From contig JBEBBG010000015.1 in the NCBI GenBank assembly GCA_041158505.1, positions 12,642 through 76,641 on the forward strand: a stretch of DNA of 64,000 nt. Reading direction: 5' to 3'. Below the pieces are notes generated by a model. It worked only from the letters and a program-made list of their open reading frames with translations. It searched no databases and was not told the DNA's origin. A program made the translations under genes and the position numbers. This DNA comes from Candidatus Parcubacteria bacterium. Its GTDB lineage: Bacteria > Patescibacteriota > Minisyncoccia > Phycocordibacterales > JAACPR01. Position 1 is the stretch's first letter. Each line of letters begins with the position of its first letter. Below, piece after piece: positions 20,808 through 60,126 of the stretch.

Positions 20808-21077
20808 ACCTGTTGATAATTAATCTTTTAAACCCAACTACTGTCTCTATTAGGACTGTGGATATGTGTATAACCTGCGGATAGTGTTATTTTACAAGCT
20901 TATTTTGTCCCCACCGAACTGCGTTTGTGTGGGGATAGTTTTGAACTTGTTTGGGATAACGAGCAGTATCCTCTAGCTTACCTACATTTATCCAGTTCTC
21001 AAGCAACCGATTTCCCCTAGTAATCCACAAATATCCCCAATACTTTGCCCTAAAATCAACAACTTATCCACATCTTA
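20808..21077. promoter_or_regulatory. DnaA-box cluster in the dnaA-dnaN spacer (oriC candidate / dnaN promoter region)
   Basis: Perfect TTATCCACA at 21064-21072; 1-mismatch boxes TGTGGATAT at 20857-20865 and TAATCCACA at 21021-21029; weaker boxes at 20876, 20951 and 20988. Confidence 0.55.
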
Positions 21078-25956: not shown

Positions 25957-26394
25957 CTAAAAACCAAGGTCCACAATGAAATCTCCAGGACCTCCCGTTC
26001 CCAAGATGAGGTTGAGGACATAAATACAAACAAGGGCTATAGCGAGACCGCCAAGTGCTGCTGTAATTCTGTCTTTTCCTTCTGATTTACCAAACAACGA
26101 CTCGGTTCCCATATATTGAACTCCTCCAACTACAAGCATGATGACCGCAAGAATAATGGTAATACTGACAAGCCATTTGAAAAGCTGAGCCAGCATCTGT
26201 GGCAGCGAACCCCCAAAGTTGACACCGCTAATTGACTGGTACCCACCTCCCCCTTGAATGTTCTGTTGCTCAGGGCTGACAGGCGCTTCTTGTGCATGAA
26301 GCACCGCAACTCCTTGCACAAAGAGCAATGATGCAACACAAAACGCGGTCACTCCTTTTTTAAAATACGGTAACATTGCCTGTTTGAAGTTCAT
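25957..26394 (-). CDS. VirB2/TrbC-like pilin candidate
   Basis: 145 aa: about 33-aa signal peptide (cleavage after HAQ/EA), then two hydrophobic helices (LFKWLVSITIILAVIMLVVGGV and ITAALGGLAIALVCIYVLNLIL) separated by a short loop: T4SS pilin architecture. Confidence 0.45.
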   Translation of the reverse strand: MNFKQAMLPYFKKGVTAFCVASLLFVQGVAVLHAQEAPVSPEQQNIQGGGGYQSISGVNFGGSLPQMLAQLFKWLVSITIILAVIMLVVGGVQYMGTESLFGKSEGKDRITAALGGLAIALVCIYVLNLILGTGGPGDFIVDLGF

Positions 26395-27412: not shown

Positions 27413-27482
27413 ACATCCATTGTAGCAGAGATAAAAGCGTGGTCTCAACTAGTTTGCACGCAGGGTGTTCGTGTTTTCAAAA

Positions 27483-28049
27483 CTAGGCAGCTGTTCTGCT
27501 AGAAACGTACGCATCAATGTTTTGATTAAGTCTTGCAACTTTTTTCGGAACAAACCTTTGAACCTCATCCAAAATAAACCAGAAAGCCTTTACTACTTTT
27601 GTGTGGTGATAGTGAACAGAGAGAATCAAAAACGTGTTGGCGGTGATGACGTCGTTAAAAGGGATGGCATCACTGATTGCAAAAAGTACAAGCATGAGCA
27701 TTATTTTTCGAAGGATAATCTTCTGAGTTATCCTGCTTATCGTGCCGCTTTCTTTTCCAAAAAACCAGAAAAAATTTATAACCCAAGTTAGTATTTTAAA
27801 AATCCAGTAAACAACAACACCAACACCTGTTAACGAAAGAAGGGACGCCGCTATAGAGAGGGTGTCAAAAATTGCATTTATTAAAACAATAAGTGTTGGG
27901 AATGGTGGTAGCTTTGGACGGTTTTCTAGAAGTTGAATAGACGCATCCCGATCAATATCAGTCGCAAATGTTTCTTTAAAGCGCCCCTGAAACTCTCTAA
28001 GGTGACGTTGGCTAGAACGAGCGTGGCGCACTATATTTCCGTCAGGCAT
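27483..28049 (-). CDS. polytopic membrane protein (T4SS-like cluster)
   Basis: Three to four TM segments (TLIVLINAIFDTLSIAASLL, VVVYWIFKILTWVINFFWFF, IMLMLVLFAI). ATG at 28049 (MPDGNIV); the track start at 28064 is GTG. Confidence 0.45.
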   Translation of the reverse strand: MPDGNIVRHARSSQRHLREFQGRFKETFATDIDRDASIQLLENRPKLPPFPTLIVLINAIFDTLSIAASLLSLTGVGVVVYWIFKILTWVINFFWFFGKESGTISRITQKIILRKIMLMLVLFAISDAIPFNDVITANTFLILSVHYHHTKVVKAFWFILDEVQRFVPKKVARLNQNIDAYVSSRTAA

Positions 28050-28053
28050 ACCC

Positions 28054-29925
28054 CTATCGTACACCCTTAATCTCTAGTCCACCACGAAGAGCTTCTGGAT
28101 TTGCCATACCACCAGATGCGCGGAGTTCTTCTTTTGCACGCTTAATTTGCAGCACCTGTGATGGGTCTGAGGTGATGATCTGGTCTTCAGTGTATGAGGC
28201 GATAATTTTAATCGCAATGTGCTTGATGCCAGCAAAGAAGATTCCCTCTCCCACTCCAGACTCAAGGAGAAGATACTTCTCTTCCTCGGTGAGGTTAAAG
28301 GTTTGCTGAATCATATCGATTGCAGTCGGTGATTGTTTCAAGAGGAGCTGGATTGATGAGTTGGTGATGATCGGCATACCGTATGGCGATCGAAGGAAGT
28401 CCTCAACGTCTTGGGTAATGGTAGACATACCGAGATAGTATTTTCGTCCTCGTTTTGCAAGCCCAAAGAGGAACGACGCGGTGTCGTCTGATTTCATCAT
28501 CCACCACGCCTCATCGATTACGAGCAGTCGCTTTTTGAGCTCTTTGCGCACAGCATTCCAAATGAAGTGCGTCACAAGGTACATTGCAACCGGCTTAAGT
28601 TCATCTTCCATGTCTCGAAGCGAGAACACGATGAAGCGCTTGTTTACGTCGATGTTTGTTGGTTTGTTGATGAAACCTGCCCAGGTACCACGTGTGTACT
28701 TTGAAAGCTTTTGAGCCATACTCTCCCCTCCCTCCATGCCGGAGAGCACATACTCGAAGTCAGAAAGAAGTGGTGGTTCAATATTTGAGAAATCACTTTC
28801 GGGAGTAATGTCTTTAAGCGCGTACGTTTCAGAAATCGCGCGATCAACGAGCGCATCTTCCTCAGGGGTGAGTCCACCAAGCATGAGTCGGAAAAGACCA
28901 ACAAGGTTCACAATATTTGATCGGAGCACGTCACCTGCAGATTCATCTGGTGTTGGTGGTGCAAGGTCAAACGGGTTGATGTGGTGATCTGAAGTAAGAG
29001 AAATATTGAAGTAGCGCCCGCCTGTTGCTTCCGCAAGGAATTCATATTCACGTTCCGGGTCGATTACAATGACGTCGGTGTCGAGCATCAGGGTGCGCAA
29101 GATCTCGAGCTTTGATGCGTACGATTTACCAGAACCAGCCTTTGCAAAGGTAACTGAGTTGTAGTTTTCAAGACTGAATCGGTCAAAGAGGACGAGCGAG
29201 TTGTTGTGTCGGTTAATACCAAAGAGAATTCCCTTATCCGAGGTAAGGTCAAACGAGATGAATGGAAAGAGGCTCGAGAGTGGTGCTGAGTTGAGCTTTG
29301 AATGCACGCCGAGAAGATCTTGCCCTGTTGGAATAACGGTCTTAAATGCCTCCTCCTGCTGGAAGAGTGCAGGCTTTACGTACACCAACTTTGCTTCGAG
29401 AATCGACTTTACCTCAGAATCGAACTTGTCGAGCTCATCTTTGTTGTCCGCATAGATGCTGATATAGAGACCAACATCAAAGATTTTCTCTTGTGCCTGC
29501 TGGAGGTTGTCACGGAGAATTTCAAGGTCTTGGTATGCGGTGTCGAGTACAGGATCGCGTACAAGCCCCTTCTCTTCTCGGGTGTGAATCTGGCTCTGCA
29601 CTTCGGCTACTTTCTTTTTAAATTGTCGAAGGATGGTTGCGGTATCGATTGGGTGCACAAAAATCGATACATCAAATACTTTGTCGAGGTTGATGATTGG
29701 TGCAAACCACGAGTCTGAAAGGAAGCGTGGGTACGAGATAACGAAGAACGTGCGCACCATTTTGTCACCAAGGTTGATGTCACGAGGGCTCATCTTGAGC
29801 GCTGAAGGCGCAATCACGTCTTGTAGCTCAAGCACGCCCGCCTCGTAAATTTCTTGTGGAAGAAATGACGTAATGTCAGGTGTTTTTGGAGCTTCCTTTT
29901 TCTTTAGAAAATCAAAGAGGGCCAT
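28054..29925 (-). CDS. T4SS ATPase VirB4/TrbE/PrgJ family, ATPase portion
   Basis: VirB4 N-region RTFFVISYP...FVHPID; Walker A FAKAGSGKSYA; Walker B LLVIDEAWWM; C-terminal TrbE-type domain. Starts at an ATG one codon after the in-frame TAG that ends the upstream ORF. Confidence 0.8.
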   Translation of the reverse strand: MALFDFLKKKEAPKTPDITSFLPQEIYEAGVLELQDVIAPSALKMSPRDINLGDKMVRTFFVISYPRFLSDSWFAPIINLDKVFDVSIFVHPIDTATILRQFKKKVAEVQSQIHTREEKGLVRDPVLDTAYQDLEILRDNLQQAQEKIFDVGLYISIYADNKDELDKFDSEVKSILEAKLVYVKPALFQQEEAFKTVIPTGQDLLGVHSKLNSAPLSSLFPFISFDLTSDKGILFGINRHNNSLVLFDRFSLENYNSVTFAKAGSGKSYASKLEILRTLMLDTDVIVIDPEREYEFLAEATGGRYFNISLTSDHHINPFDLAPPTPDESAGDVLRSNIVNLVGLFRLMLGGLTPEEDALVDRAISETYALKDITPESDFSNIEPPLLSDFEYVLSGMEGGESMAQKLSKYTRGTWAGFINKPTNIDVNKRFIVFSLRDMEDELKPVAMYLVTHFIWNAVRKELKKRLLVIDEAWWMMKSDDTASFLFGLAKRGRKYYLGMSTITQDVEDFLRSPYGMPIITNSSIQLLLKQSPTAIDMIQQTFNLTEEEKYLLLESGVGEGIFFAGIKHIAIKIIASYTEDQIITSDPSQVLQIKRAKEELRASGGMANPEALRGGLEIKGVR

Positions 29926-29928
29926 ATG

Positions 29929-30570
29929 CTAATTGTGTGGTAATGGTTTCTCAACATCACCTGGATTAAAGAGTCGGTAAAAGATTTCAATCACCTCTTC
30001 GGTGCCAAGTTGCACTGCGCGAATACCGCTGCGGACGATTCCAGACCGCACAACGGCGATACGCTGTTCAAGCTGGCTGCGTGCTTCCTCAAAATCTTCA
30101 GTCTTCATGTTTGCGTCTTTTTTGCCACCAAACGGATTGCTTACCTTTTTGCCGCGAACATCAATCGTTGGTGGTGTGTACGGAACTGTAATGTAAAAGG
30201 TCTTGGTCATAATGTTGGTGCGCTCAGTAAACGCTTGGATGAATCCAATGTACTCTTTGATTTGCACGCGCATGAGGTCGTTAATTTGCTCTCGCTCGCG
30301 AGCTTCAAGCATTGCTACGTATGGACGAATGTCGAGACGTCTCGACTGGATGAAGATTTGAACCGAGAAATTGAGCGAGTTGAGAAACTGTTGGAATTGG
30401 AAAATGATTGCACTCTGCTCCTCTTCTGATTTGAGCGCAAAGTTGATTGAAGAGGTCATGAGGATTGCGCGCATTGAACCATCCTTGAGCACAAGAATAC
30501 CGTCACGCACTTCACGCACGGGGACAAAGTCCTGTGTTGTTTTTGAGTTTGCTGCTGCCATATCGTGCAT
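29929..30570 (-). CDS. VirB4-family N-terminal domain protein; same frame as the ATPase ORF, separated by a single TAG
   Basis: VPVREVRDGILVLKDGSMRAILMTSSINFALKSEEEQSAIIFQFQQFLNS matches the conserved N-terminus of Gram-positive VirB4-like ATPases; frame continuity with 28054..29925 checked by coordinates. Confidence 0.5.
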   Translation of the reverse strand: MHDMAAANSKTTQDFVPVREVRDGILVLKDGSMRAILMTSSINFALKSEEEQSAIIFQFQQFLNSLNFSVQIFIQSRRLDIRPYVAMLEAREREQINDLMRVQIKEYIGFIQAFTERTNIMTKTFYITVPYTPPTIDVRGKKVSNPFGGKKDANMKTEDFEEARSQLEQRIAVVRSGIVRSGIRAVQLGTEEVIEIFYRLFNPGDVEKPLPHN

Positions 30571-30605
30571 TCATTATACACGACTGTACGAAACGAAAAC
30601 GTGGG

Positions 30606-31043
30606 TTACTGACGTGTGCGCGGATCAACGTCCTGGAGTGTTTGCAACGTCTCGTGAATATCGAGTCCCCACGATAAATCTTTGAGCTTACTGTTTGTTA
30701 CTTTTGGCACCTCTTGCGTAACGTACTGAATGACTTCGGCCGCTTTCTTCTCAGGTGTTTTTTCCCGTTTTTTCCAGAGGTATAACTTTGGTGAAAAGAT
30801 GAAACGAAACGCTGTTTCGAGGACCACAACAAGCGGCCGATTGTTTACTTGGTAAAAGGCAAAGCCAAAAAAGAGGAGTACTACTGGTAAGCCAATGACA
30901 ATTGCTAGAACCTTGGGCATGGTAGTCCAAAAGATGAAGGCGAACGCCAACCCCGCAGCCGAGTACAGGAACTGTTTAAGGGTGAGTGGTCCAAAAATCT
31001 TATCTTCTACTTCAAGGAATTGTGGTACTTGGTATTTTGCCAT
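30606..31043 (-). CDS. PrgI-family (VirB3-like) small membrane protein
   Basis: MAKYQVPQFLEVEDKIFGPLTLKQFLYSAAG then two TM helices: the PrgI-family signature (VPxDLxxEDKIFGxLTLRQ) and the canonical position immediately upstream of VirB4. Confidence 0.6.
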   Translation of the reverse strand: MAKYQVPQFLEVEDKIFGPLTLKQFLYSAAGLAFAFIFWTTMPKVLAIVIGLPVVLLFFGFAFYQVNNRPLVVVLETAFRFIFSPKLYLWKKREKTPEKKAAEVIQYVTQEVPKVTNSKLKDLSWGLDIHETLQTLQDVDPRTRQ

Positions 31044-31055
31044 AGGGGTACGTAT

Positions 31056-31910
31056 TTAGGCGATTGGCTCTCGGTATGGGTCTGTTGAGCCGTATGTTCG
31101 AGTTGTTGGCGTGGCTGGTGATGCTTCACCACTAACTGTACTCTCTGATGTTTCAAGTTCTAGACGGTTCTTTGCGGCGGTAACTGGCTGACCAAGCTTT
31201 GCTGCAACAATTGGATCAAGGTGTTTTGGTACAAACTGCTTAACTGCGGCAAGAGGCGGCGCTGGTTGCGTTTTTACTATAGGAGCAGGGCTCATCTGGG
31301 GAGCGGTTTTTGGAGTTGTTGGTAGGGTGATTACTTTCTCGATATGTGCTGGTACGGCAGTGTGAGGAGCTGGTGTTCCCGCAAGGAGTATCGGTTTGCT
31401 CTGTGGAATTGGCTTACCCTGGAAGAGCGCAACCGGAGAAACATCTAACTTTTTTGTTGAATAGCGAGCGGTACTTCCCTTTGATGGCAAGGTGACCTCG
31501 TTGTCTTCTTTGACTGCGGCTGCAATATCATCATCAGCCTTTGTGAGCTCGTTTGAAACACGCTCAACATCGTCGATGGTGTCATGAGATTCTGTAATGC
31601 CAACTAGTTTTTCACGAATGTTTCCAAAAATGTCGCGCTCGATATCGGCCGCGATTGCTGCGGCTTGTTCATCTGATACCCGTGCACCCTCTTTGGCGTT
31701 CTCAACAAAGGCATCCGGATCCTCCATGCCAAGCATGGTGACAAAGATGAGGCTCTCAAGTGCTGCCCCTTGATCGATGTGTAGCTGGTACTTCTCGACG
31801 ATGTTTCGAACTTTCTCTTGCCAGTTTGAATTAAGCACAATATCCTGCACTACTGGCGGAAGTGTGTTGAACTGTTCTTTAATGAGGTTTTCTGTTTCTT
31901 GCGAGATCAT
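31056..31910 (-). CDS. hypothetical protein with Pro-rich C-terminal half (T4SS-like cluster)
   Basis: 284 aa, no TM; acidic helical N-domain, then a PxxP-rich spacer. Confidence 0.45.
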   Translation of the reverse strand: MISQETENLIKEQFNTLPPVVQDIVLNSNWQEKVRNIVEKYQLHIDQGAALESLIFVTMLGMEDPDAFVENAKEGARVSDEQAAAIAADIERDIFGNIREKLVGITESHDTIDDVERVSNELTKADDDIAAAVKEDNEVTLPSKGSTARYSTKKLDVSPVALFQGKPIPQSKPILLAGTPAPHTAVPAHIEKVITLPTTPKTAPQMSPAPIVKTQPAPPLAAVKQFVPKHLDPIVAAKLGQPVTAAKNRLELETSESTVSGEASPATPTTRTYGSTDPYREPIA

Positions 31911-31913
31911 AGG

Positions 31914-33980
31914 CTATTCTTCTTTTTTATCACCCTTCGCGGCTTTAAGTGCTTTTATGATGTCGTATTTAACATCACGTTCTGCTTTAGCGAGTTCCTT
32001 TGCAATCGTTTTACCAGCAGCTGTTCGAGCAGGCTGCACCCATTTTAACTTACCAGCACCGCTTCGATTAAGCTGATCCCTATAGGTTTCAATGTAAACA
32101 TTCTTACTCTTATTGTATTTCTCTTTTGCTTCTCGAACGTCTTTCTTGGCAGTAGCGATTGATGCTTTTGAAGCATTAGTATCAATGAGGGTTTGGAGAG
32201 TTGCTTCCTTTGCATCAAGGTCTGCTTTATTTGGCTTAACAATATCATTACTGTCTGATACTTGCCCGATTGCTTCTGCTGCAAAGTTTGTAATTTTTTC
32301 TCGATTACTCTTAATGCTCGATGCATATCCTCCCTTACCCCCTGCAGCTCCAAATGCTTTATCCCCTACACCGGTTGCACTTGCGACTCCGGTAAATGTT
32401 TTTGAATTTCGAGCATCAAATGAGGCGCTGCCAATTCCTCGAGTTGTTTGAAGAGCAAATGCACCAATACGAGATTTTGCAGCCCACTCTTTAAATCCAT
32501 CTTTATCGGCAGCCCAGTTTGCAACGCGTCCAGGGAATTGTCTTCCAGCAAAAGCTGCGGTTCCAATAGCTGCACCACCAACTTTTGATGTAATGTTGCC
32601 GCTAAGTTTTGCAAGCGCTTTGTTTCCCATTGAGTGCATTTGTTTTGCTGCATAGAGGGCTCCAAGAAAGAGGCCAATAACGATACTGTATCGAACTAAA
32701 GGACTTGCTGCTGATGCAACCATTTTTACTATTGTTGATTGGACGCCCGCACTTGCCGCCGAAAAACCAACCTGAATACCAGAGGGGCTTGAAGTTTTTA
32801 CTATATCGAGTATTCCCTCTCCTCCGCTTCCTCCCATAAGCTTAAAGGCGATGAGTAGAAATAGTAGAAAAACAGGCAATGAAAAAGCATTTCCTATGAG
32901 TGAATCCCACCACTCCTGCGACATTTTTTTTGTCATTGGAAAGGCTTTTCCTACAAAACCAATTGGAGACAGAATAAGTAGAAAAACAATGATGAGGGTT
33001 CTCGCAATCAACATGAAAGCCCCAATAAACATCACAATCGCAAGTATGATGACGACCGCAATGGTCATTACAACACCAACACTTACCTGTATGAGTTGAT
33101 CAGTCGCACCGCTGTAGGTACTTTCATTGTTGCCAACTAATCCTGCACTATCCTTGCTTATTTTTAAGGCGTCTGTCTTTTCTAGTATAAAAGAACTTAC
33201 ACTTCTATCTCCAAGAACATTTTCAATGCTCTTCATGACAGAAAGAGCAAATTGGTTTGAGACGTCAACGATGACAGCCGCAAAAAAGAAGCTAAAGTTT
33301 ACGAGTAGGGCGGCAATAATGACATTTTTGAGAGCCTTTTTTGCTTCGCCGCTCTCTGTTTGTAAAATAAGGTTAATAGCGACGTAGAGTAAGATAAAGA
33401 CAAAACCAATGTTTACTAAGTCTCTAAAGATTTTCCATGCTTCATCTACAGACGCTCGAACGTTGCCACCCTCAGCAACCATAGAACTTAGACCGTAGGT
33501 ACTGATATTGATTGCTGTGTCGAGAAAAAAACCAGCAATGTAGAGTGTTAGTGATGCAACCCAGGTAATTGCAACTCCTATAGCACTAATTCCTGTCGTA
33601 AGACCTTTTAAAACAGTGGCAACTGTTTTCTCTAAACCAGATTTTTTAACTGTTTCAACAGCCGCTGCCCCGTCGTTAAATGCGTTTACCGGGTTTAGAC
33701 CTCGACCAAGTGCGTTAAAGAAGCCTTGGGCGCCCTCTTGCCCACTAATGGCCTTATTGTAGGACGCATTTTTGTCTAAACCGTTTAAACGAGATTGTAT
33801 GTAGTCGTCAACTAGTGCGCTGCGCAAGCTTGGCGGAATATTTGCTTCTCCAAAAATTTGCTGGGCTTCTTGTGCGTAGTTTTGATTTTGGGCATTTGCC
33901 GTGCTCGGTGCGTTAACAAAAAAAAGTCCAAGTAATACAGTACACAAAAAAATATGTTGTAAAACTCGACGCGCTCTCAT
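31914..33980 (-). CDS. large polytopic membrane protein, VirB6/TrbL/PrgH-like candidate
   Basis: 688 aa: signal peptide, periplasmic N-domain, at least six TM helices in the central region, Lys-rich cytoplasmic tail. Assignment is by architecture and context, not sequence motif. Confidence 0.45.
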   Translation of the reverse strand: MRARRVLQHIFLCTVLLGLFFVNAPSTANAQNQNYAQEAQQIFGEANIPPSLRSALVDDYIQSRLNGLDKNASYNKAISGQEGAQGFFNALGRGLNPVNAFNDGAAAVETVKKSGLEKTVATVLKGLTTGISAIGVAITWVASLTLYIAGFFLDTAINISTYGLSSMVAEGGNVRASVDEAWKIFRDLVNIGFVFILLYVAINLILQTESGEAKKALKNVIIAALLVNFSFFFAAVIVDVSNQFALSVMKSIENVLGDRSVSSFILEKTDALKISKDSAGLVGNNESTYSGATDQLIQVSVGVVMTIAVVIILAIVMFIGAFMLIARTLIIVFLLILSPIGFVGKAFPMTKKMSQEWWDSLIGNAFSLPVFLLFLLIAFKLMGGSGGEGILDIVKTSSPSGIQVGFSAASAGVQSTIVKMVASAASPLVRYSIVIGLFLGALYAAKQMHSMGNKALAKLSGNITSKVGGAAIGTAAFAGRQFPGRVANWAADKDGFKEWAAKSRIGAFALQTTRGIGSASFDARNSKTFTGVASATGVGDKAFGAAGGKGGYASSIKSNREKITNFAAEAIGQVSDSNDIVKPNKADLDAKEATLQTLIDTNASKASIATAKKDVREAKEKYNKSKNVYIETYRDQLNRSGAGKLKWVQPARTAAGKTIAKELAKAERDVKYDIIKALKAAKGDKKEE

Positions 33981-34041
33981 TACATTCTAGTATAGCAGTA
34001 GAAGATGTATTGACACACCCTATCTGTGAATACATCTTCTC

Positions 34042-35577
34042 CTATGTTCTGTCCCCTAGTATGCTAGATTGCTTTGAAGAATTAGGAAGAAGCTTTGACG
34101 GCGGCTTTGTTAGTTGTTCTTGAAGAGCATCCAAAAGCTCCTCACCCTTCTCGTCGATATTTACGAGGCGTTGCTCTGCTAATCCTATTCGGTTTTCTGA
34201 AACCATTTTGATAAAGCTGCCCGGAATCTCAACGTCCCCGGTGTCTTGATCTTTTTTGCTCAAATATCCGTCGTTCATCTCGTACTCAGCTAGTTGCAGG
34301 TTAATACTGTTTGCTTGAATAGTTTCAATTTCTGCTTGTGCAGATAAGAAGCGGAGTAAATCACTGTTGACTGGATTAAGCCGAACAGCCAGTGTGTCCC
34401 AAGGATTTTTGCTCTCTTGCTCCTGTTGCTTTTGCTGTTCATGAATAGGTACACCATATTCGCTGGCCATGAGATTTTCTACGACGGTGTCACCTTGGCT
34501 GCCTTGTTGAGATTTTTTATATTCATCAATAAAAGACTCGAAATGCATTTGGGATAGATCACTGAGTGCCTGAGGGAGATTTTGAACAAATGCAGGGTTA
34601 CCACCAAAAGCTGTGGTGATGTAATTCCCTGAGCTCTCCACAACCGCGGCGGCCATCGCATCAGCAACACAGTTATCTGCAGCGTCGTATGATTTACTAC
34701 TTCCTCCTGGTTCCCCCGCGTCTTTACGCACAAGTTCCCACACGTACGCGTTAATGGTGAGGGTGTCGACGGGGACAGCATATTCCCCTGTTGCTTGAGA
34801 TGTGTTGCTTGATAAGCCACTTCCTTCCCCTCCTCCAATACCACTGGTGGTTTCTTTGTTACACTCAGTTGTTGCTTCTGTAAGGCTTGTGGGTTTGCCG
34901 TCGCCATCCGCATCACCGGTTGCACGAATAATGTCGCCACCCTGCTCCGGCTTCTCTGGTTCGTTTATAGGAACTTCATTTGGTTCAAATTCCTGAGATT
35001 GACCAGCGTTTCCAAGAGGGCTGCCTCCCGAATTTCCTCCAAGTAAATTCTGGACTGCCTGCGGTACACCCCCCTGTCCTCCTTGCTGTCCTCCGCCAAG
35101 CAGGTTCCCTAACGGGTTATTCCCTCCTCCGGGTAGTTGTGGCAATTGTGGCAACTGCGGCGTACTTCCTCCTTGGTTACCAAGGTTAGGAAGATTCACA
35201 TCTGCTTTTACATCTACTTCACAGGTTGCTTCTGCGCGCTCCCCGTTTGAAACAACGATAACGGTTGCCTTTTTTGTGCCGTAGCTACCGTAGCTGGTAG
35301 TGACCTGGGGCTTATCAACTGTTGTAATATTTACGCCACGCCACCGATACGCAATTTTACTTTCTGTACCTCGAACAGTTGCTCGCCAGATTACTGGCTC
35401 ATCACGTCCAACCTCTGCTTTTGAGGGAGCACAGGTTACTTTAAGCGTCGTTGCTTGAGCGTACCCAAGGTGTGGCAACAGCTGCACAACAAGTAGACCA
35501 CCGAGAATGGTAACAACTAACCCGCTTAAAACGAGCGGCTTGTATAGGATTTTTGTTGTTTTTAGAAATCGTTCCAT
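34042..35577 (-). CDS. membrane-anchored protein with Gly/Gln/Pro-rich low-complexity linker (T4SS-like cluster)
   Basis: N-terminal TM, PQLPQLPQLPGGGNNPLGNLLGGGQQGGQGG repeat tract, globular C-terminal domain. Confidence 0.45.
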   Translation of the reverse strand: MERFLKTTKILYKPLVLSGLVVTILGGLLVVQLLPHLGYAQATTLKVTCAPSKAEVGRDEPVIWRATVRGTESKIAYRWRGVNITTVDKPQVTTSYGSYGTKKATVIVVSNGERAEATCEVDVKADVNLPNLGNQGGSTPQLPQLPQLPGGGNNPLGNLLGGGQQGGQGGVPQAVQNLLGGNSGGSPLGNAGQSQEFEPNEVPINEPEKPEQGGDIIRATGDADGDGKPTSLTEATTECNKETTSGIGGGEGSGLSSNTSQATGEYAVPVDTLTINAYVWELVRKDAGEPGGSSKSYDAADNCVADAMAAAVVESSGNYITTAFGGNPAFVQNLPQALSDLSQMHFESFIDEYKKSQQGSQGDTVVENLMASEYGVPIHEQQKQQEQESKNPWDTLAVRLNPVNSDLLRFLSAQAEIETIQANSINLQLAEYEMNDGYLSKKDQDTGDVEIPGSFIKMVSENRIGLAEQRLVNIDEKGEELLDALQEQLTKPPSKLLPNSSKQSSILGDRT

Positions 35578-36527
35578 ACGTTTCCAAGTTCGTTACTATC
35601 AAAAAGTATACCATTCGATTTGAAGTATAGAGCGAGAGATTTCAGGTGTTCACGTTGTGTGGTTGGAAGCGCGTCGTAGTTTTGTTGTGCAAGGAGGCTG
35701 TAAACAGGATCGTTGCCTGTAAGGAGGAGCTTTGGAAGGTATACAGAGGCGCGGTATAAGTTATTAGTAAAATCAAGATGTGCCGCTACTGCTCCGTCTG
35801 GTACGGGCATCATTGAAAGCTCTTCGGCAAAGCTTTGGTAGTAAGCTTTAAGTGTGTTGACGTAGTCCTCGGGGGTGGTGTTTTTTGAAACCGAAGCAAG
35901 AGCAATTGTGTAACGAGTGTAGGTTCCAGCAAACGCGTTGCCATACTGGCGAACCTTTTCTGTATCGGCGTCACTAACTGTTTGGAGCTCAAAAACAGAG
36001 TATTTGTCAGGAATACTCACCTCTTCGCGGGCCTCCGCCGCAATCTGAGCCGTAAGAGCCGGAATTGTGTCATCTGTCATTTTTCCAGACTGCTTTAAAA
36101 GCAAGTAGTTTGAAATGAGCTTTGAGCTAACGATTTCAGAGAGGCTGCCGGGATTATAAAACAGAGAAGGTGTTGAGCTGCTTGTTGCAAACAGCATGTC
36201 GTCTGGTCCTGGGGTGAGCGGATCTCTGCCGCCGCGTGCTTCTGTCCCATCGAGCGCACCATCGCCGTCAGTGTCGGGGTTATTGCTGTCTGTGCCGCGC
36301 ACGGTTTCCTCCCAATCAAAGAGCCCATCATTGTCGGCGTCTGGGGCAACAAGGGTGTTGTTTGGAAAGATAGTTTCAGCTGTAAGCTCTACTGCTGGTG
36401 TCTCTGGTGCTGATGCTCGTTTTTCCGCGATGGCGTTTTTAATTTGATCAACAGCAATAATCCCTAGGGTAATCACGGCAACGGTTCCAACAATCATGAT
36501 TCGATTTTGATTCGCGCTTCGTGCCAT
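35562..36527 (-). CDS. membrane-anchored protein with thrombospondin-type-3-like Ca-binding Asp repeats; first gene of the T4SS-like operon
   Basis: N-terminal TM; DADNDGLFDWEETVRGTDSNNPDTDGDGALDGTE fits DxDxDGxxDxxE calcium-binding repeats. ATG at 36527. Confidence 0.5.
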   Translation of the reverse strand: MARSANQNRIMIVGTVAVITLGIIAVDQIKNAIAEKRASAPETPAVELTAETIFPNNTLVAPDADNDGLFDWEETVRGTDSNNPDTDGDGALDGTEARGGRDPLTPGPDDMLFATSSSTPSLFYNPGSLSEIVSSKLISNYLLLKQSGKMTDDTIPALTAQIAAEAREEVSIPDKYSVFELQTVSDADTEKVRQYGNAFAGTYTRYTIALASVSKNTTPEDYVNTLKAYYQSFAEELSMMPVPDGAVAAHLDFTNNLYRASVYLPKLLLTGNDPVYSLLAQQNYDALPTTQREHLKSLALYFKSNGILFDSNELGNVWNDF

Positions 36528-41084: not shown

Positions 41085-42659
41085 CTAGACGCTTTTACGG
41101 TACTGGAGTGCTTCCAAGATATCGGGCAAGGTAATTGCCGAACGATGCTCTAAATCTGCGATTGTTCGCGCGATACGTAGAATCTTGTGTGTGCTGCGTG
41201 CAGATACGTTGAGTCTCTGTAGTGCCTGAATAAACATGGTGTGTATCTCGGGTTCGAGTGTGGTGTGAGTTGATAATGCTTTACCGTGCAACCGTGCATT
41301 CGGAACGCCTTGTCGTTGTAATGCATGCTGCCGTGCCGCTGCAATAATCTCATGTGCACCACCTGTCTCTATTTGTCTTTCATGTGTTGCTGGTTCCAGG
41401 AGTGTTTGGTGTGGAACGTCTTCCATCGATACCCACACATCAATGCGATCGATAATTGGGCCAGATAGTTTTGTTTTGTAGCGCAGTATGTGTGCAGCGG
41501 TGCAGGTGCATGGTTTTTGTGGATGGCCAAGGTAGCCACAAGGGCACGGGTTAAGTGTCGCAATGAGCATTGATGACGCTGGGTATGTTACCGATCCGTT
41601 TGCTCGTGCGAGTGTTATGCAGCCATCTTCAAGTGGTTGGCGGAGCGCTTCTATGGTTTCTCGATCAAACTCTGGAAATTCATCAAGCAGGAGCACACCA
41701 TGATGTGCAAGTGTTAATTCTCCAGGCCGAAGCCATGCCCCGCCCCCAATGATTGCAGCAGCAGAGCTGCTATGGTGTGGTGCTCGAAACGGCCGTTGCG
41801 TCGTTGGTTCTCCCTGCAGAATTCCTGCTGCTGAGTGAATGGTGTGTACAACAAATGCTTCAGCTTCGGTTAGTGGTGGTAGTAGTTCTCGAATTGCGCG
41901 GGCCAGTAGCGTTTTTCCTGTTCCAGGAGGTCCACAGAGTGCAATGTTGTGTTCACCAGCGGCTGCAATCATGGCCGCTCTTTTTGCGGCATGCTGTCCA
42001 CGTATTGCAGAAAGTTCCCGGTCGCTACTTGGGAGTGAGGCTAGCATTGTCTTTTTGAATTGAACAACTTGTTTATCTGAGCTTTCTTCTGCTAGCGGTT
42101 TACATCCTTTGAGGTGTCGTATGAGTGCGCTGAGTGTGGGTACGCCGTATACAATAACTCCATCAACAACCGCTGCTTCCTGAGCATTTTCAAGAGGTAC
42201 GTACAGGTGTGTTATACCTGATTCTTTTGCACGCTGCGCAATGGGCAGTGTCCCACGAACCCCTCGCACCATACCGTTAAGTGAGAGTTCGCCCACAAAG
42301 AGTGAACGCGGGTACTGTATTTGTACGGTTTCTGAGGCAAGTAAATACCCAACCGCAATCGCAAGATCAAACAATGGTCCGTGCTTTCTCGTGTGAGCTG
42401 GCGCAAGTGACACAGTGACACGCTCATTCTTTTGCTTTGGTGGTTGTACCCCTGCGTGTTTAAGTGCCGCGGATACTCGTTCACGTGATTCATCGACCGC
42501 TTTATCTCCCAACCCAATAATTGTAAAAGAGTATAAACCGTTTGCTATATCAACTTCTACATCAACCAGTGACGCCTGAATTCCTACCACGTGTGCACTC
42601 TGAACCTTTGCGAAACTCACCCTGTTGTTATACACGCAGGACTCTAAAGAAACGCTCAA
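41085..42659 (-). CDS. comM: YifB/ComM-family Mg-chelatase-like AAA+ ATPase
   Basis: Lon-like N-domain, GPPGTGKTLLARAI Walker A, ChlI-type C-terminus; 524 aa. Confidence 0.85.
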   Translation of the reverse strand: MSVSLESCVYNNRVSFAKVQSAHVVGIQASLVDVEVDIANGLYSFTIIGLGDKAVDESRERVSAALKHAGVQPPKQKNERVTVSLAPAHTRKHGPLFDLAIAVGYLLASETVQIQYPRSLFVGELSLNGMVRGVRGTLPIAQRAKESGITHLYVPLENAQEAAVVDGVIVYGVPTLSALIRHLKGCKPLAEESSDKQVVQFKKTMLASLPSSDRELSAIRGQHAAKRAAMIAAAGEHNIALCGPPGTGKTLLARAIRELLPPLTEAEAFVVHTIHSAAGILQGEPTTQRPFRAPHHSSSAAAIIGGGAWLRPGELTLAHHGVLLLDEFPEFDRETIEALRQPLEDGCITLARANGSVTYPASSMLIATLNPCPCGYLGHPQKPCTCTAAHILRYKTKLSGPIIDRIDVWVSMEDVPHQTLLEPATHERQIETGGAHEIIAAARQHALQRQGVPNARLHGKALSTHTTLEPEIHTMFIQALQRLNVSARSTHKILRIARTIADLEHRSAITLPDILEALQYRKSV

Positions 42660-55797: not shown

Positions 55798-55848
55798 GGT
55801 AAACGGAATGTGCTTTAGGGTAATGCATTTAGTGTAACAGGATTTGTA

Positions 55849-55918
55849 AACGTAAAGGACATTCAGCAAACACAACTGTGGATAAAGGACAGTTATCCAC
55901 ATGGTATGTCCTTTACAC
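55849..55918. promoter_or_regulatory. nested palindrome carrying two perfect inverted DnaA boxes upstream of the surface-protein gene
   Basis: cGTAAAGGACAT...TGTGGATAA(55877-55885)aggacagTTATCCACA(55893-55901)tggtATGTCCTTTACac; a further GTAAAGGACA copy at about 56190. Confidence 0.55.
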
Positions 55919-56200
55919 ATTTTCAAACGAGCATACAATAGGATATGAGGTCGTTCTTCATAAGCACCTTCAAAAATTTTTCGTAAGTGTCTTTTGACTA
56001 CTTACCACCCTTGCATGTCCCGGACTTTTCCGGATTTACACGAAGCGTAGGTGTGGTTCCCAGGCAAAAAACACTTAAAACCGCCTGGATTACAATAAAA
56101 AACAAAAACTCCTCTCGTCTCAACGAGGCAAGCTTCTCCCCAAAGCACGCCTCACTAACTCAATCTGGGCGGTTCTTTCTTTAAAAAAGTAAAGGACAAG

Positions 56201-56230
56201 CAAAAAACCACGCAATTGCGTGGTTTTTTG
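56201..56230 (-). terminator. Rho-independent terminator downstream of cca
   Basis: caaaaaaccacgc-aatt-gcgtggttttttg. Confidence 0.7.
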
Positions 56231-56256
56231 CTTGTAGAACATCTCTCTGTCGTACG

Positions 56257-57729
56257 TTACTCTACGTGATGCTTCTTACGTAGCTGCTTTACTTCCTTTT
56301 CATCTTCGAGAGAAAGCTTTTCTTTCCCTTGTTTTCCAAGTCTTTCAAGATCTTCAAATGGTAGCTGGTTTAGCTCTAGTGCCCGTTTTTCAAGGTACTT
56401 CTCTGTATTTCGCTCTGGTTCTTCAAGGATTTCATCAAAAAGCGTGTACAGTATATGTCCAATCTTTGGTCCCTTATCAACTCCCATGTTCATAAGATCT
56501 GTCCCGTCGATTTTTAACATGGTCACAGAAAGCGGTGCCCGAAGCGCTTCTTCAATCATAGATTGATACTTTCTGAAGCGGTATGGCTCTTCTTTTGGTC
56601 GTCCCGTACCAATTCGGTCGCATTTCCTAAGGTTTACAAGGTCCCAGATATTATCTTCTCCCACTTTTGCAATGATGCGCCGGACAGCAGAAAGTGTGAT
56701 TTGCTCAGGATCAGCAAAAAACATGTGCCAACGCACAAGCGTGGTTACTTTTTGAATGGTTTCACGTGAAAAACGTAGATTTTCCAGAGTTTCACGTGTA
56801 ACTCGCGCACCCACCACTTCGTGGCCAAAGAAAGTTGCCTTTTTCCCTACCATTCTCTTTGTGTGAGGTTTTGCAACGTCATGAAACAGTACAGCAAGGC
56901 GTAGCTCTAAATCGTACCCCTTATCGGCGGCGTGCTGTAAAGCTCGTAGAGAATGTTCAAAAACATCGTATTTGTGAGCCTGTGTTTCTTGTGAAACACC
57001 GACCATACCCTCAAGAGCTTCAGAAACATGACGAAGCAGGCCAAGCCTTTGCATCATTACAAGTCCGAGCATTGGGTTATCAGACATAATAAGCTTTACA
57101 AACTCCTCCCTAATCCTTTCACGTGAAACGTTCCCCAGTAGGTCCCCCATTTCTTCAATCGCCTTTGCGGTATCTGATTCAATAAAGAAACCAAGCTCAG
57201 CGCTAAATCGAACGGCGCGCATAATTCGAAGGGCATCTTCTTCAAAGCGTTCCTGTGGATTTCCTACAGTACGTAGTTTTTTGGCCACCAAATCATCCTG
57301 TCCTTTATAAGGATCAACAATCTGTCCTTTAGAAAGTGCGATGGCATTTACTGTAAAATCACGTCGAGACAGATCGTCCCCTATCTTTTTGCTAAAGGTC
57401 ACCGAGTCCGGATGACGATTATCTGAGTACTTTGATTCAAGCCGGTATGGGGTAACCTCTACAATCTTCATTCGTTCATCATCGCTGCGCGTCTTTACCC
57501 CCACTGTTCCGAAGGTGTTTTCGTAGAAAGAATCAGGAAAAATCTCCTGGATTTCTTCAGGGGTAGCATTTGTTGTGGCGTCCCAATCTTTTGGTTCTCG
57601 GCCCAAAATCAGGTCCCGGACACAGCCTCCTACGAGGTACGCCTCGAAACCAGCGGCCTCAAGCCCCTCAAGCACTTCCCCAACTGGCTTTGGTATGTCA
57701 TACTTGCCTTGCTTCATACGTACCGCCAT
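56257..57729 (-). CDS. cca: CCA-adding tRNA nucleotidyltransferase with HD domain
   Basis: GGCVRDLILGREPKDWD head-domain motif; HD motif (LFHDVAKP); 490 aa. Confidence 0.85.
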   Translation of the reverse strand: MAVRMKQGKYDIPKPVGEVLEGLEAAGFEAYLVGGCVRDLILGREPKDWDATTNATPEEIQEIFPDSFYENTFGTVGVKTRSDDERMKIVEVTPYRLESKYSDNRHPDSVTFSKKIGDDLSRRDFTVNAIALSKGQIVDPYKGQDDLVAKKLRTVGNPQERFEEDALRIMRAVRFSAELGFFIESDTAKAIEEMGDLLGNVSRERIREEFVKLIMSDNPMLGLVMMQRLGLLRHVSEALEGMVGVSQETQAHKYDVFEHSLRALQHAADKGYDLELRLAVLFHDVAKPHTKRMVGKKATFFGHEVVGARVTRETLENLRFSRETIQKVTTLVRWHMFFADPEQITLSAVRRIIAKVGEDNIWDLVNLRKCDRIGTGRPKEEPYRFRKYQSMIEEALRAPLSVTMLKIDGTDLMNMGVDKGPKIGHILYTLFDEILEEPERNTEKYLEKRALELNQLPFEDLERLGKQGKEKLSLEDEKEVKQLRKKHHVE

Positions 57730-57777
57730 TGTAGCAGCATGTAGATATTTTGCGACTTTGGCGTATACTGAGCAAAC

Positions 57778-57852
57778 GCTCTCGTGGTGAAATGGATATC
57801 ACAGCGGTCTTCGGAACCGTCGTTGGGGGTTCGAATCCCTCCGAGAGCACCA
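57778..57852 (+). tRNA. tRNA-Arg (anticodon TCG), CCA encoded
   Basis: Acceptor gctctcg/cgagagc, D-stem gtga/tcac, anticodon loop cuUCGga, T-arm ggggttcgaatccct, 3' ACCA; TATACT -10 at 57766. Confidence 0.8.
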
Positions 57853-57855
57853 AGT

Positions 57856-58110
57856 ATGGCAAAGAAAAAGTTCGTTTGTACCAATATCGTTTGCAAGAAT
57901 CCAAATCTTAACCTTATTCTAAGCCTTATTGCTGTTGTTTGGTTGTGGCGAGGTATTTGGGGGCTTACTGACGCAGTCGTTTTTGCTTCTACCCCGTTTG
58001 ATCTCGAGCACTTACTCGGGTATGGCGTCCCAATCCTCATTGGTATTGCGTACCTATACTTCAACGATTACTCAATTTCAGAGCTCACCCACGGGACTCC
58101 AAACGATTAA
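57856..58110 (+). CDS. hypothetical small membrane protein
   Basis: ATG at 57856 right after the tRNA; MAKKKFVCTNIVC... then two hydrophobic helices; followed by a weak hairpin (58112-58134). The track ORF 57784..58110 overlaps the tRNA and is N-extended. Confidence 0.4.
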   Translation: MAKKKFVCTNIVCKNPNLNLILSLIAVVWLWRGIWGLTDAVVFASTPFDLEHLLGYGVPILIGIAYLYFNDYSISELTHGTPND

Positions 58111-58190
58111 AAAATCCCCCTTGTAGGGGGATTTGGGCGTTGTCCTGATTGCGTATTTAAAGAAAAGCTATATAATTCCTCAGACCACAC

Positions 58191-58261
58191 GCGGGTATAG
58201 TTTAGTGGTAGAACGAGTCCTTGCCAAGGATTAGATGGGAGTTCGATTCTCCCTATCCGCA
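58191..58261 (+). tRNA. tRNA-Gly (anticodon GCC)
   Basis: Acceptor gcgggta/tatccgc, anticodon loop uuGCCaa, T-arm gggagttcgattctccc; TATAAT -10 at 58173-58178. Confidence 0.8.
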
Positions 58262-58384
58262 CCGATACATTATTGTAGTGCCTTAACCATCAGTCGAGCT
58301 GCGTAGCAAACAAGTCCTTAAAGAAAAAGACATAGCACGTATTGGTCAGCAAGGTTGCTGTAAGGCAAATCGAAAATGTCCTAG

Positions 58385-58447
58385 TAATCCCCATATTTTT
58401 CAATAAAATTGTGGAAAACTGTGGATAACTCTGGGGATATGTGTATA
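58385..58447. promoter_or_regulatory. dense DnaA-box cluster followed by an AT-rich tract (alternative oriC or DnaA-titration site)
   Basis: Perfect TGTGGATAA at 58421-58429; 1-mismatch boxes TGTGGAAAA (58410-58418) and TGTGTATAA (58439-58447); weaker boxes at 58386 and 58432; then about 200 bp that looks AT-rich by eye. Confidence 0.5.
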
Positions 58448-58563
58448 AAAGACAGCATTTTTAGACAGTTTTCAAGGCCACTTTTCCTTTAAAAATGGCT
58501 TTGTTGAGCTCTATTTTACTTTTTTAAGACATTGTTTTACAAAATAGCCTTATTTTAGTATAT

Positions 58564-58658
58564 GTTTCACGTGAAACACTACTTGTTTTCATAAAATAAG
58601 CACTTTTTCTTTAATAAAGTTTCATGTGTAACGGTATATGATCGTTTCACTTGAAAAC
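58564..58658. promoter_or_regulatory. three tandem GTTTCACGTGAAAC-type palindromic operator-like sites upstream of the yraN-like gene
   Basis: Perfect 14-bp palindrome gtttcacgtgaaac at 58564-58577; variants gtttcatgtgtaac (58619-58632) and gtttcacttgaaaac (58643-58657). Confidence 0.5.
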
Positions 58659-59040
58659 AAGAAAGGATATTGGGAATTACGGAGAACAAGAAGCTGTTGA
58701 TTTTTTAGAGAAAAGGGGCTTTAAAGTGCTAAAAAGAAACTACAGACTCTTCTTTGGAGAAATCGACATTATAGCTGAGCGGGCTGGGGTTATTCACTTT
58801 GTGGAGGTAAAAACCGTTTCACAAGAAACATTTTCACGCGGAATCAAGCCCGAAGATCATGTTACACGTGAAAAGATAAGCAGAATTATGAAGGTTGCAG
58901 AGTTTTTTCTGGCAAACAGTAATCTTTTTAACAGAAAAACCCAGATTGACGTGGTCTCGATTGTTAAACCTCAAGATGTGTTACACATGAAACCGGTTAT
59001 ATATCTGTTTGAGCACGTTACTCGAGACCGTCTATCCTAG
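58651..59040 (+). CDS. YraN-family (UPF0102) PD-(D/E)xK endonuclease
   Basis: GEQEAVDFLEKRGFKVLKRNYRLFFGEIDIIAERAGVIHFVEVK matches the YraN core (GE.AE...L...G..IL.RN.R...GEIDLIA....LVFVEVK); TTG start at 58651. Confidence 0.7.
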   Translation: MKTRKDIGNYGEQEAVDFLEKRGFKVLKRNYRLFFGEIDIIAERAGVIHFVEVKTVSQETFSRGIKPEDHVTREKISRIMKVAEFFLANSNLFNRKTQIDVVSIVKPQDVLHMKPVIYLFEHVTRDRLS

Positions 59041-59173
59041 ACGATGGGGAATTCTAGTGCTACTATGACGCTACACCACAAGGTTATATATAGTCATTTT
59101 TCTCTATATACGTGCTGTGTCGGTGTACCCATATTCACCCGTGTGCCGTTTACACGGGGTGTAAAGAATGAAA

Positions 59174-59246
59174 CGGGGCGTGGTGTAACGGCTAACATGC
59201 TCGGTTTGGGACCGAGTGACTCCGGGTTCGAATCCCGGCGCCCCGA
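59174..59246 (+). tRNA. tRNA-Pro (anticodon TGG)
   Basis: Acceptor cggggcg/cgccccg, anticodon loop uuUGGga, T-arm ccgggttcgaatcccgg. Confidence 0.8.
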
Positions 59247-59253
59247 CTACAAT

Positions 59254-60126
59254 ATGAAACTGGTAACGCATGAAGGAAGCTTCCATCTTGACGACCTCTT
59301 TGCTGTTGCGACTATTACGCTCCTCTATCCAGATATTGAGATTGTACGGACAAGAGACGCAAGCAAGTTTGGGGACGCTGATTTTGTTGTAGATGTTGGG
59401 GATATTTGTGATCCTGCGACAAACCGATTTGATCATCACCAGCATGGTGGGGCAGGAGTTCGTGAGAACGGTGTGCCATACGCGAGTTTTGGTCTGGTCT
59501 GGAAAAAGTACGGCAAAATGGTGTCTGGGGAAGAGCGAATCGCTGATTTGGTAGATAAAAAGATGGTGCAGCCGATTGATGCAGCTGATAACGGCTTCAA
59601 TATGTACCGGGAAACAAAACCTGGCCTTTCACCTTACTTGCTCGACAACGCATTCAAGGCGCTGACGCCAACGTGGCGAGATCCAGAGACGGTTGATGAT
59701 ACGTTTGCCAATTTGCTTCCACTGGCACAAGAGATTTTGCGTCGAGAGATTAAGAAGGCCCAGTATTTCTTTGAGGACACGGAAATTGTGAAGGAGGCGT
59801 ACCGTGTTGCTGAGGATAAGCGAATTATTGTCCTTGAGCATCCAATGGCGTGGAAATCGGTGATTTCGAGGAAGCGTGAGCCAGTATATGTGATTCATCC
59901 AAATCAGATGACTGGGGAGTGGATTGTGGCATGTGTACGAAAGTCTCCACAGTCACACGAAAACCGAAAGCTGCTACCAAAGGCGTGGGCAGGGAAGCGT
60001 GGTAAGGAGTTAGAGCAAGCAACTGGTGTGCAGGGCGCTGAAGCTTGCCACAATAAGCGCTTCATTGCGACAGCCTGGACACGTGAGGCCGCGATTAAGC
60101 TGGCACAGTTGGCGCTGCAGGCGTAA
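59254..60126 (+). CDS. MYG1/UPF0160-family metal-dependent hydrolase (paralog 1, canonical)
   Basis: ATG at 59254; LVTHEGSFHLDDLFAVATITLLYPDIEIVRTRD...VVDVGDICDPATNRFDHHQHG reproduces the MYG1 N-terminal metal-site motifs. The track ORF 59044..60126 reads through tRNA-Pro and is N-extended. Confidence 0.75.
   Translation: MKLVTHEGSFHLDDLFAVATITLLYPDIEIVRTRDASKFGDADFVVDVGDICDPATNRFDHHQHGGAGVRENGVPYASFGLVWKKYGKMVSGEERIADLVDKKMVQPIDAADNGFNMYRETKPGLSPYLLDNAFKALTPTWRDPETVDDTFANLLPLAQEILRREIKKAQYFFEDTEIVKEAYRVAEDKRIIVLEHPMAWKSVISRKREPVYVIHPNQMTGEWIVACVRKSPQSHENRKLLPKAWAGKRGKELEQATGVQGAEACHNKRFIATAWTREAAIKLAQLALQA

Follow-up and report, generated by a model that had tools for sequence, protein, structure and literature searches.

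A conserved DnaA-box cluster within a predicted parS array, probably separate from the replication origin, in a Parcubacteria genome

Does a dense cluster of DnaA boxes next to AT-rich DNA, found tens of kilobases away from dnaA, mark the replication origin of the chromosome, or does DnaA bind there for another purpose? The question is raised by the spacer between tRNA-Gly(GCC) and yraN in the 64-kb stretch of DNA analysed here (the window), part of the metagenome-assembled genome of an uncultivated Candidatus Parcubacteria bacterium, which the first-pass annotation described as either an alternative oriC or a datA-like locus. The answer that we consider moderately probable is that the cluster is a conserved DnaA-binding site near the origin but not part of it, embedded in a parS centromere, with the origin itself in the dnaA-dnaN spacer. 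That DnaA and ParB bind at the locus, with regulatory consequences, is what we infer from the arrangement and conservation of their predicted sites.

The box cluster and its AT-rich flank

The cluster lies in an intergenic region of 387 bp bounded by tRNA-Gly(GCC), which ends at 58263, and by yraN, whose TTG start is at 58651 (Table 1), in good agreement with the ~390 bp beside tRNA genes described initially, as tRNA-Gly, tRNA-Arg and tRNA-Pro are all nearby. Rightward from tRNA-Gly(GCC) the order is this spacer, yraN, tRNA-Pro and MYG1. The distance to dnaA, put at about 37 kb in the first-pass annotation, is 36 kb when measured to the dnaA start and 37.5 kb to the dnaA-dnaN spacer. All five of the box-like 9-mers reported within 63 bp are present, one of them perfect, two with one mismatch and two with two mismatches to the consensus, and their density is beyond that found in simulations. 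The cluster is the best 100-bp window for DnaA boxes in the entire 64 kb, with a score of 9 as compared to 8 for each half of the dnaA-dnaN spacer, while the top score was 6 in first-order Markov simulations of 64 kb (n=500) and 7 in simulations using the AT-rich composition of the spacer itself (n=500). Core boxes 2 and 3 share one base, and the identical tandem arrangement is found at 20857-20873 in the dnaA-dnaN spacer.

The tract from the boxes to yraN (58449-58650) has a GC content of 28.7%, and no other 200-bp window of the whole sequence is as AT-rich as 58480-58679 (27% GC against a mean of 47.9%, sd 4.8%), so that the AT-rich ~200 bp originally noted by eye is borne out by measurement. 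The cluster thus joins the top box score of the window with its most AT-rich DNA, which gives it the look of a classical origin and counts against the non-origin reading that we favour.

Table 1. Coordinates of genes, predicted protein-binding sites and motif copies in the window
Feature	Position	Strand	Mismatches	Remarks
dnaN	19707-20807	-		
dnaA-dnaN spacer, probable oriC	20808..21077			~10 box-like 9-mers in two opposed groups
dnaA	21078-22436/22481	-		
Second DnaA-box locus, TGTGGATAA-AGGACAG-TTATCCACA	55877..55901			Intergenic, upstream of PG-binding protein gene
CCA-adding enzyme gene	56257-57729	-		
Four parS-like sites in CCA-adding enzyme gene	56758, 56788, 56983, 57115 (56758..57130)		2-3	
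tRNA-Arg	57778			Between CCA-adding enzyme gene and 84-aa ORF
tRNA-Gly(GCC)	58191-58263	+		Left edge of box-bearing intergenic region
Weak DnaA-box-like 9-mer TAATCCCCA	58385..58393	+	2	Orientation opposite to the other four
DnaA box TGTGGAAAA	58410..58418	-	1	
DnaA box TGTGGATAA, core box 1	58420..58428	-	0	Perfect
DnaA-box-like TGGGGATAT, core box 2	58432..58440	-	2	
DnaA box TGTGTATAA, core box 3	58440..58448	-	1	
Motif copy TAAAAGACA	58446..58454	+		Abuts core box 3
Consensus parS TGTTTCACGTGAAACA	58563..58578		0	16-bp palindrome; predicted ParB nucleation site
Degenerate parS-like AGTTTCATGTGTAACG	58618..58633		4	Read from sequence
yraN (UPF0102 endonuclease)	58651-59040	+		Pfam PF02021, E=3e-23
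Three parS-like sites in yraN	58815, 58860, 58979 (58815..58994)		3	

Several further features of the neighbourhood were noted. The TTG start of yraN is aligned with an ATG at the same position in relatives, and an exact-protein look-up of the YraN of the window matched only a 1-kb contig. Between tRNA-Arg and tRNA-Gly there is an ORF of 84 aa (57856-58110), without a Pfam match and hydrophobic by eye, followed by a terminator-like hairpin at 58116-58131. Among relatives, which are introduced below, this ORF is present in L030 and L032 and absent from L002-L004, and its absence accounts for a shift of ~380 nt in parS positions among them. Rfam scans of the whole window at gathering thresholds and of 58100-59300 at E<=1 returned only tRNAs and a sub-threshold Phe_leader on the terminator hairpin, i.e. 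no known RNA in the 387-bp spacer. Near dnaA, rpmH-rnpA-yidC are divergent from it; the spacer between rpmH and dnaA (~113 bp) holds no box with <=1 mismatch, unlike in L005, and DnaA is 452 aa long in the database, from the ATG at 22436, as compared to the 467-aa ORF starting with TTG at 22481. Database matches with 100% identity exist for both DnaA and YraN of the window, namely the proteins RL150_580 and RL150_617 of a Candidatus Parcubacteria bacterium, encoded on a 77-kb contig.

A parS-like array around the boxes and its conservation

Inside the AT-rich tract, 114 bp to the right of the boxes, sits a perfect copy of the consensus parS known from the ParB literature, TGTTTCACGTGAAACA, which the first-pass annotation had missed. 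It is not isolated: the window contains eight parS sites with <=3 mismatches, four in the gene for the CCA-adding enzyme, one intergenic and three in yraN, and all of them are found within 56758-58994, when 0.66 would be expected for the whole window. Those inside yraN may partly reflect coding constraint (e.g. VTREK). Relatives have 6-11 parS-like sites each at corresponding positions, the orthologues of the sites in the CCA gene being kept in L002-L004, L028, L030, L032 and L034, and the block GTTTCAYRTGTAAC at the degenerate parS-like site is conserved as well. Apart from its parS sites the AT tract is poorly conserved in sequence. In five dnaA loci (105 kb in total) we found no parS-like sites. 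Since the sites are clustered, keep their positions and do not occur at dnaA loci, the locus probably represents the centromere-like zone of the chromosome, with the DnaA boxes inside it. Neither parB nor parA was found among the genes of the window, and a search for ParB motifs (GERRxRA, ENLQR) in 484 kb of examined loci gave no match, so a cognate ParB is assumed here; a literature search on parS or ParB in Patescibacteria also returned nothing. A subclade (L028, L030, L032 and L034) shares an inverted repeat, ATGGCTC-N4-GAGCCAT (TGGCT...AGCCA), midway along the AT tract and ~50-70 nt beyond the boxes; the repeat is degraded in the window (58496-58511).

Relatives were retrieved via neighbouring proteins and not via the boxes, with MYG1 (~80% identity) leading to L002-L004 and YraN to L030, L032 and L034 (53-73% identity) and to L036 (44%). 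In the first six of these the core TGKGGATAA-N3-TGGGGATATGTGTATAAARGACA is invariant, and across seven genomes retrieved independently the box core is kept in spacers that are otherwise only ~63% identical, which answers in the affirmative the comparison with relatives suggested at the outset. Core box 1 reads TGTGGATAA or TGGGGATAA in every relative found by MYG1 or YraN, and core box 2 is TGGGGATAT in all of the six, while the N3 between the boxes varies (CTC, CTA, CCT, GAC). In L036 box 2 has become a better box, TGTGGATAT, and box 3 is weakened to TGGGTATAA; because one improves as the other degrades, it appears that box-likeness as such is what is kept. The outer boxes are more variable: TGTGGAAAA at 58410 is present in some relatives (L004 and L030) and degenerate in others, and in place of the weak box at 58385 relatives have a better one (TTATCAACA, TTATACACA or TTATCCACA), lying 4-14 nt ahead of the direct boxes. 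L038 has more degenerate boxes and retains parS-like sites and yraN.

The order of elements is also constant. In the six relatives with the invariant core the block is followed 84-113 nt further on by parS with 0-2 mismatches, then by the second block, GTTTCAYRTGTAAC, and by yraN, and in the wider set of loci such a parS is found 72-145 nt (mostly 84-124) after the boxes in most relatives. An exact search of metagenomes with 21 nt of the block gave 20 further loci, nearly all of them beside tRNA-Gly(GCC), tRNA-Arg or tRNA-Pro, and most with parS at the expected offset; as the search itself guarantees the 21-mer in these, only linkage and parS co-occurrence were taken from them. In ~21 of 24 non-redundant loci, including those with rearranged tRNAs, the block precedes yraN with its orientation unchanged, and the three-box core, parS and downstream yraN occur together in more than 20 Paceibacteria/Parcubacteria (CPR) contigs. 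One subclade (L022, L023 and L026) has lost the intergenic parS and its boxes are still linked to yraN. The distance from dnaA to yraN is 36 kb in the window, 32.9 kb in JAOHFE010000001 and 25.5 kb in Ga0502760_0000045, with the same relative orientation.

What would such a site do? In the mechanism that we propose, the element would consist of the three core boxes at fixed spacing with one or two accessory boxes, and the centromere of 8-10 parS-like sites over ~2.2 kb, the strongest being the one next to the boxes. DnaA would be held on the boxes via its domain IV, with the DNA kept closed. Because the site would be duplicated early, the cluster could buffer free DnaA soon after initiation and so serve as a DnaA sink. 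The boxes overlie a -35/-10-like pair, and DnaA may thereby also act as an operator-bound regulator of the unit reading into yraN. ParB would load independently at the adjacent parS, and the constant spacing between boxes and parS would make cross-talk between ParB and DnaA possible.

A different role for the same proteins has to be weighed, namely that centromere-bound DnaA licenses or triggers ParABS segregation as in Caulobacter, the boxes serving neither buffering nor transcription. Their position within the parS array, with the strongest parS 72-145 bp (mostly 84-124) away in most of over 20 loci, would suit such a role, and DnaA at the boxes of the Caulobacter parS region is needed for centromere translocation (PMC6399470). 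However, boxes that stay linked to yraN after the loss of intergenic parS, as in the subclade mentioned above, are not easily reconciled with it, and no genes for ParA, ParB or a polar anchor were seen in the loci examined. We regard a purely segregational role as unlikely, though still credible, and computationally it cannot be separated from the buffering and regulatory role that we prefer.

Position of the replication origin

In the preferred reading, a non-origin DnaA site in a centromere, the origin lies elsewhere. We analysed GC and AT skew at third codon positions (GC3 and AT3) in 59 genes of the window. Left of 20.8 kb, GC3 and AT3 are -0.27 and +0.06 for plus-strand genes and -0.18 and +0.22 for minus-strand genes, with dnaN at -0.07 and +0.23. 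On the other side of the dnaA-dnaN spacer dnaA has +0.36 and -0.03, the 25 genes on the minus strand at 21-53.5 kb, dnaA among them, have +0.16 and -0.05, and plus-strand genes right of 58.6 kb have +0.07 and -0.17. In a weighted change-point model with side and gene strand as terms, the dnaN/dnaA boundary at 20,942 was the best of 54, separately for GC3 and for AT3; given this switch, an additional one at 58.4 kb was not significant (F=2.0 and F=0.9). The GC-skew analysis called for in the first-pass annotation thus places the sign reversal at 20.9 kb, between dnaA and dnaN, and not at 58.4 kb. Pooling the window with L005, L007 and L035, whose DnaA is 79-92% identical, gave the same picture for these four genomes, with GC3 of -0.16 and -0.20 on the left of the dnaA-dnaN spacer and +0.12 and +0.10 on the right, and AT3 of +0.08 and +0.13 on the left and -0.10 and +0.03 on the right.

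Across the cluster the behaviour is different. We pooled seven genomes, taking 48-64 kb of the window and +/-10 kb around the module in L002-L004, L030, L032 and L034. AT3 is flat here (-0.12 and -0.12 to the left of the cluster, -0.09 and -0.16 to its right), while strand-corrected GC3 rises from +0.04 and -0.01 to +0.215 and +0.19, without reversal of sign. This step in GC3 is not predicted by a single origin at dnaA-dnaN and leaves some probability on origin activity at the cluster. A gene-specific cause is possible, since AT3 is unchanged and the same few orthologous genes lie to the left in every genome.

The dnaA-dnaN spacer also has the sequence layout of an origin. On the dnaA-sense strand, 3-4 G+C-rich bases come after a conserved tandem pair of boxes, TTATCCACTTATCCACA (in the window, TTATACACATATCCACA); next, in three of five genomes (L005, L007 and L035), are DnaA-trio-like repeats of the TAATAGTAATAATAA/CTAATAGTAATAATAA type, and then an AT tract reaching to the dnaN ATG. 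In the window itself, GGAC/trio-like CTA ATA ... and an AT tract lie on the dnaN side of the tandem boxes (20857-20873); the trio run of the window is degenerate (TAA TAG AGA CAG TAG), which we count as a weakness. Boxes, a short spacer and DnaA-trios make up the layout of the basal unwinding system (PMC8287927), and the dnaA-dnaN spacer (20.8-21.1 kb) is, from its skew and layout, the probable unwinding origin of the chromosome.

The boxes at the cluster are arranged differently. They read TGTGGATAA...TGTGTATAA and then the AT tract, i.e. they face away from it, whereas E. coli oriC reads 13-mers and then TGTGGATAA (sequence checked in the single-copy mnmG-mioC spacer) and the dnaA-dnaN spacer of our window reads AT/trio and then TGTGGATATGTGTATAA, both opposite to the cluster. 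The box nearest to the AT tract of the cluster does not have the oriC-type orientation (TTATCCACA-then-DUE, equivalent to DUE-then-TGTGGATAA), and in B. subtilis reversal of the trio-proximal boxes inactivates the origin (PMC6669920). DnaA-trios were sought beside the cluster, as had been suggested, and no run of >=3 repeats exists on either strand of the tRNA-Gly/yraN spacer in seven genomes. Of the DnaA-assembly-plus-DUE layout initially seen at this locus, what stands is that the boxes abut an AT-rich tract, while their orientation is reversed, trios are missing and a parS occupies the tract.

The direction of genes in the window does switch at the cluster. Between dnaA and the cluster, forks travelling from the dnaA-dnaN spacer would run head-on into 26 of 35 protein genes, whereas every gene of the window right of the cluster points the same way as the forks. 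We rejected this switch as evidence for an origin: left of dnaN genes are split 9:9 between the strands, and in relatives both strands carry genes right of the cluster, so the lineage shows little co-orientation. A recent inversion of 21-58 kb as the cause of the skew was also rejected, because one of its breakpoints would have to fall within the dnaA-dnaN spacer and because layout and skew are shared by relatives with saturated synonymous divergence.

How likely is it then that the cluster is a functional oriC, or a second or alternate one, where the AT tract is opened, and that the boxes between dnaA and dnaN serve only the regulation of dnaA and dnaN? Top box score and lowest G+C coincide there, the parS array is centred on it, the switch in gene orientation and the GC3 step of ~0.2 in seven genomes fall on it, and E. 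coli, with oriC ~40 kb from dnaA (PMC8287927), provides a precedent for the distance. We nevertheless consider this quite unlikely. Both skews change sign at the dnaA-dnaN spacer in four genomes, while at the cluster AT3 is flat and GC3 keeps its sign in seven; minus-strand genes at 21-53.5 kb, with GC3 of +0.16, resemble the right replichore and not the minus-strand genes left of dnaN (-0.18); the boxes are wrongly oriented relative to the AT tract, which has no trios and is conserved only in its parS sites; and the orientation switch is not kept in relatives. The alternative-oriC half of the initial proposal is disfavoured on these grounds. That proposal had also linked the position of the origin to conservation of the cluster: origin mapping favours the dnaA-dnaN spacer, and the cluster is conserved in relatives.

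Gene order near dnaA differs between relatives. A type IV secretion-like cluster (T4SS pilin, VirB4/TraG-like ATPase, PrgI; 23881-36527, minus strand) is head-on and adjoins yidC; this region was compared between the window, L005, L035 and L037 and, on the other side, L007/L008. In the relative with 92% identical DnaA, yidC is followed by PPase, trigger factor, ClpP, RNase Y and HU, and this order from PPase to HU is the reverse of that found right of yraN in L036, which suggests that the whole module-bearing segment is inverted between relatives.

A third motif, the yraN promoter region and related systems

Core box 3 is abutted by a further conserved element. The motif TAAAGGACA, i.e. T-AAA[G/A]GACA, clusters together with the boxes, and its copy at offset +12, touching box 3, is present in all eight genomes examined. 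Over 3.3 kb around the cluster in these eight genomes (55854-58454 in the window, and -3000..+300 from the box block in L002-L004, L030, L032, L034 and L036) it occurs 2.27 times per kb as compared to 0.11, a 20-fold enrichment; two copies within the CCA gene may reflect coding (KGQ...KGQ). The same zone contains the second DnaA-box locus at 55.9 kb, a palindrome flanked by three copies of the motif in the form AAAGGACA/TGTCCTTT (zone 55846-55920), and in six of the eight genomes a perfect TTATCCACA stands beside the motif 2.1-2.6 kb left of the cluster. The upstream context of the motif resembles TATAAAGGACA and motif positions are conserved. From the palindrome it is ~80-100 bp to the likely ATG (55797) of the downstream gene, which encodes a 793-aa PG-binding protein.

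These observations, together with a -35/-10-like pair, TGGATA-16 nt-TATAAA, that can be read from the sequence across boxes 1 and 3 in the direction of yraN, raise the question of whether the likeness to DnaA boxes is incidental and the invariant 36-nt block is the promoter or operator of another factor, for example one recognising TAAAGGACA, which would control yraN. The block does stay with the 5' region of yraN through rearrangements, and it ends in TAAAAGACA, a copy of the enriched motif. A consensus promoter/terminator scan found no promoter over the boxes. We consider an incidental likeness very unlikely: three to five 9-mers with 0-2 mismatches to TTATCCACA at fixed phase would hardly arise by chance, variation preserves box-likeness (the TGTGGATAA/TGGGGATAA swap and the trade between boxes 2 and 3 in L036) while the N3 between boxes is free to vary, the tandem TGTGGATATGTGTATAA recurs in the dnaA-dnaN spacer, and perfect boxes are found at the second locus 2.5 kb away. 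Least probable of all, in our opinion, are two DnaA-assembly regions 25-37 kb apart, with the centromere-embedded cluster firing as a second or alternate initiation site, even though this would account for the GC3 step at the cluster and for the weak skew between the two loci.

YraN acting with ComM was described as resolving D-loops of natural transformation (preprint 10.1101/2024.02.06.579203), and if this holds, the DnaA boxes stand in front of a transformation gene. Besides yraN, the window encodes a ComM-like Mg-chelatase/MCM ATPase (41085-42659) and a T2SSE/PilB-type ATPase (11090-12934).

A centromere-associated DnaA site would have practical consequences. Origins of uncultivated bacteria are usually predicted from the density of DnaA boxes and AT-richness, and this heuristic may pick such a predicted site over the origin, affecting growth-rate estimates that depend on origin position. 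The tight and conserved pairing of initiator sites with a predicted ParB nucleation site, in the minimal genomes of a CPR clade (Paceibacteria/Parcubacteria), would provide a compact natural system for the coupling of initiation, DnaA buffering and segregation, and it also exposes a third motif that accompanies DnaA boxes at two places of the same zone.

Judged by its sequence features, the cluster most likely belongs to the known datA/DBC class, joined here to a centromere, so that the datA-like half of the initial proposal is supported in outline, as a conserved non-origin cluster of DnaA boxes. The datA locus of E. coli, which is not an origin, carries about five DnaA boxes, lowers initiation potential, is duplicated early in the cycle and works via an IHF site and hydrolysis of DnaA-ATP. 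It shares with our cluster the character of a non-origin DnaA-box locus, without sequence homology; to our knowledge E. coli has no parS, and datA is not associated with a centromere. The DBCs of B. subtilis, which are non-oriC clusters of DnaA boxes, hold initiation back by binding DnaA and show genetic interactions with Spo0J (ParB)/Soj (Okumura et al. 2012, PMC3245932). Like the cluster described here they are intergenic, contain several boxes and lie outside oriC yet near the origin, and some regulate neighbouring genes; unlike them, our cluster, predicted from sequence in a CPR host, is inside a parS array, 114 bp from a perfect parS, and abutted by TAAAAGACA.

In Caulobacter crescentus DnaA binds boxes in the parS region (Mera et al. 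2014, reviewed in PMC6399470), which is similar to the present locus in the placement of boxes within that region, at a few to tens of kb from the origin, and in the link between initiator and centromere. The phylum and the arrangement of boxes are different, the boxes here are in the 5' region of a gene, and a role in segregation is putative. With the canonical oriC and its basal unwinding system (Richardson/Pelliciari/Murray; PMC6669920, PMC8287927) the cluster shares the proximity of boxes to AT-rich DNA, but its boxes are reversed, trios and a sign reversal of skew are absent and parS lies in the AT tract; it is the dnaA-dnaN spacer of the window that fits this family. Finally, chromosomal parS arrays, as in B. 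subtilis, Myxococcus and Corynebacterium, consist of 16-bp palindromes near the origin, many of them within genes (PMC6399470). The predicted array described here differs from these in being very compact, with 8-10 sites in ~2.2 kb, and in the cluster of DnaA boxes embedded in it.
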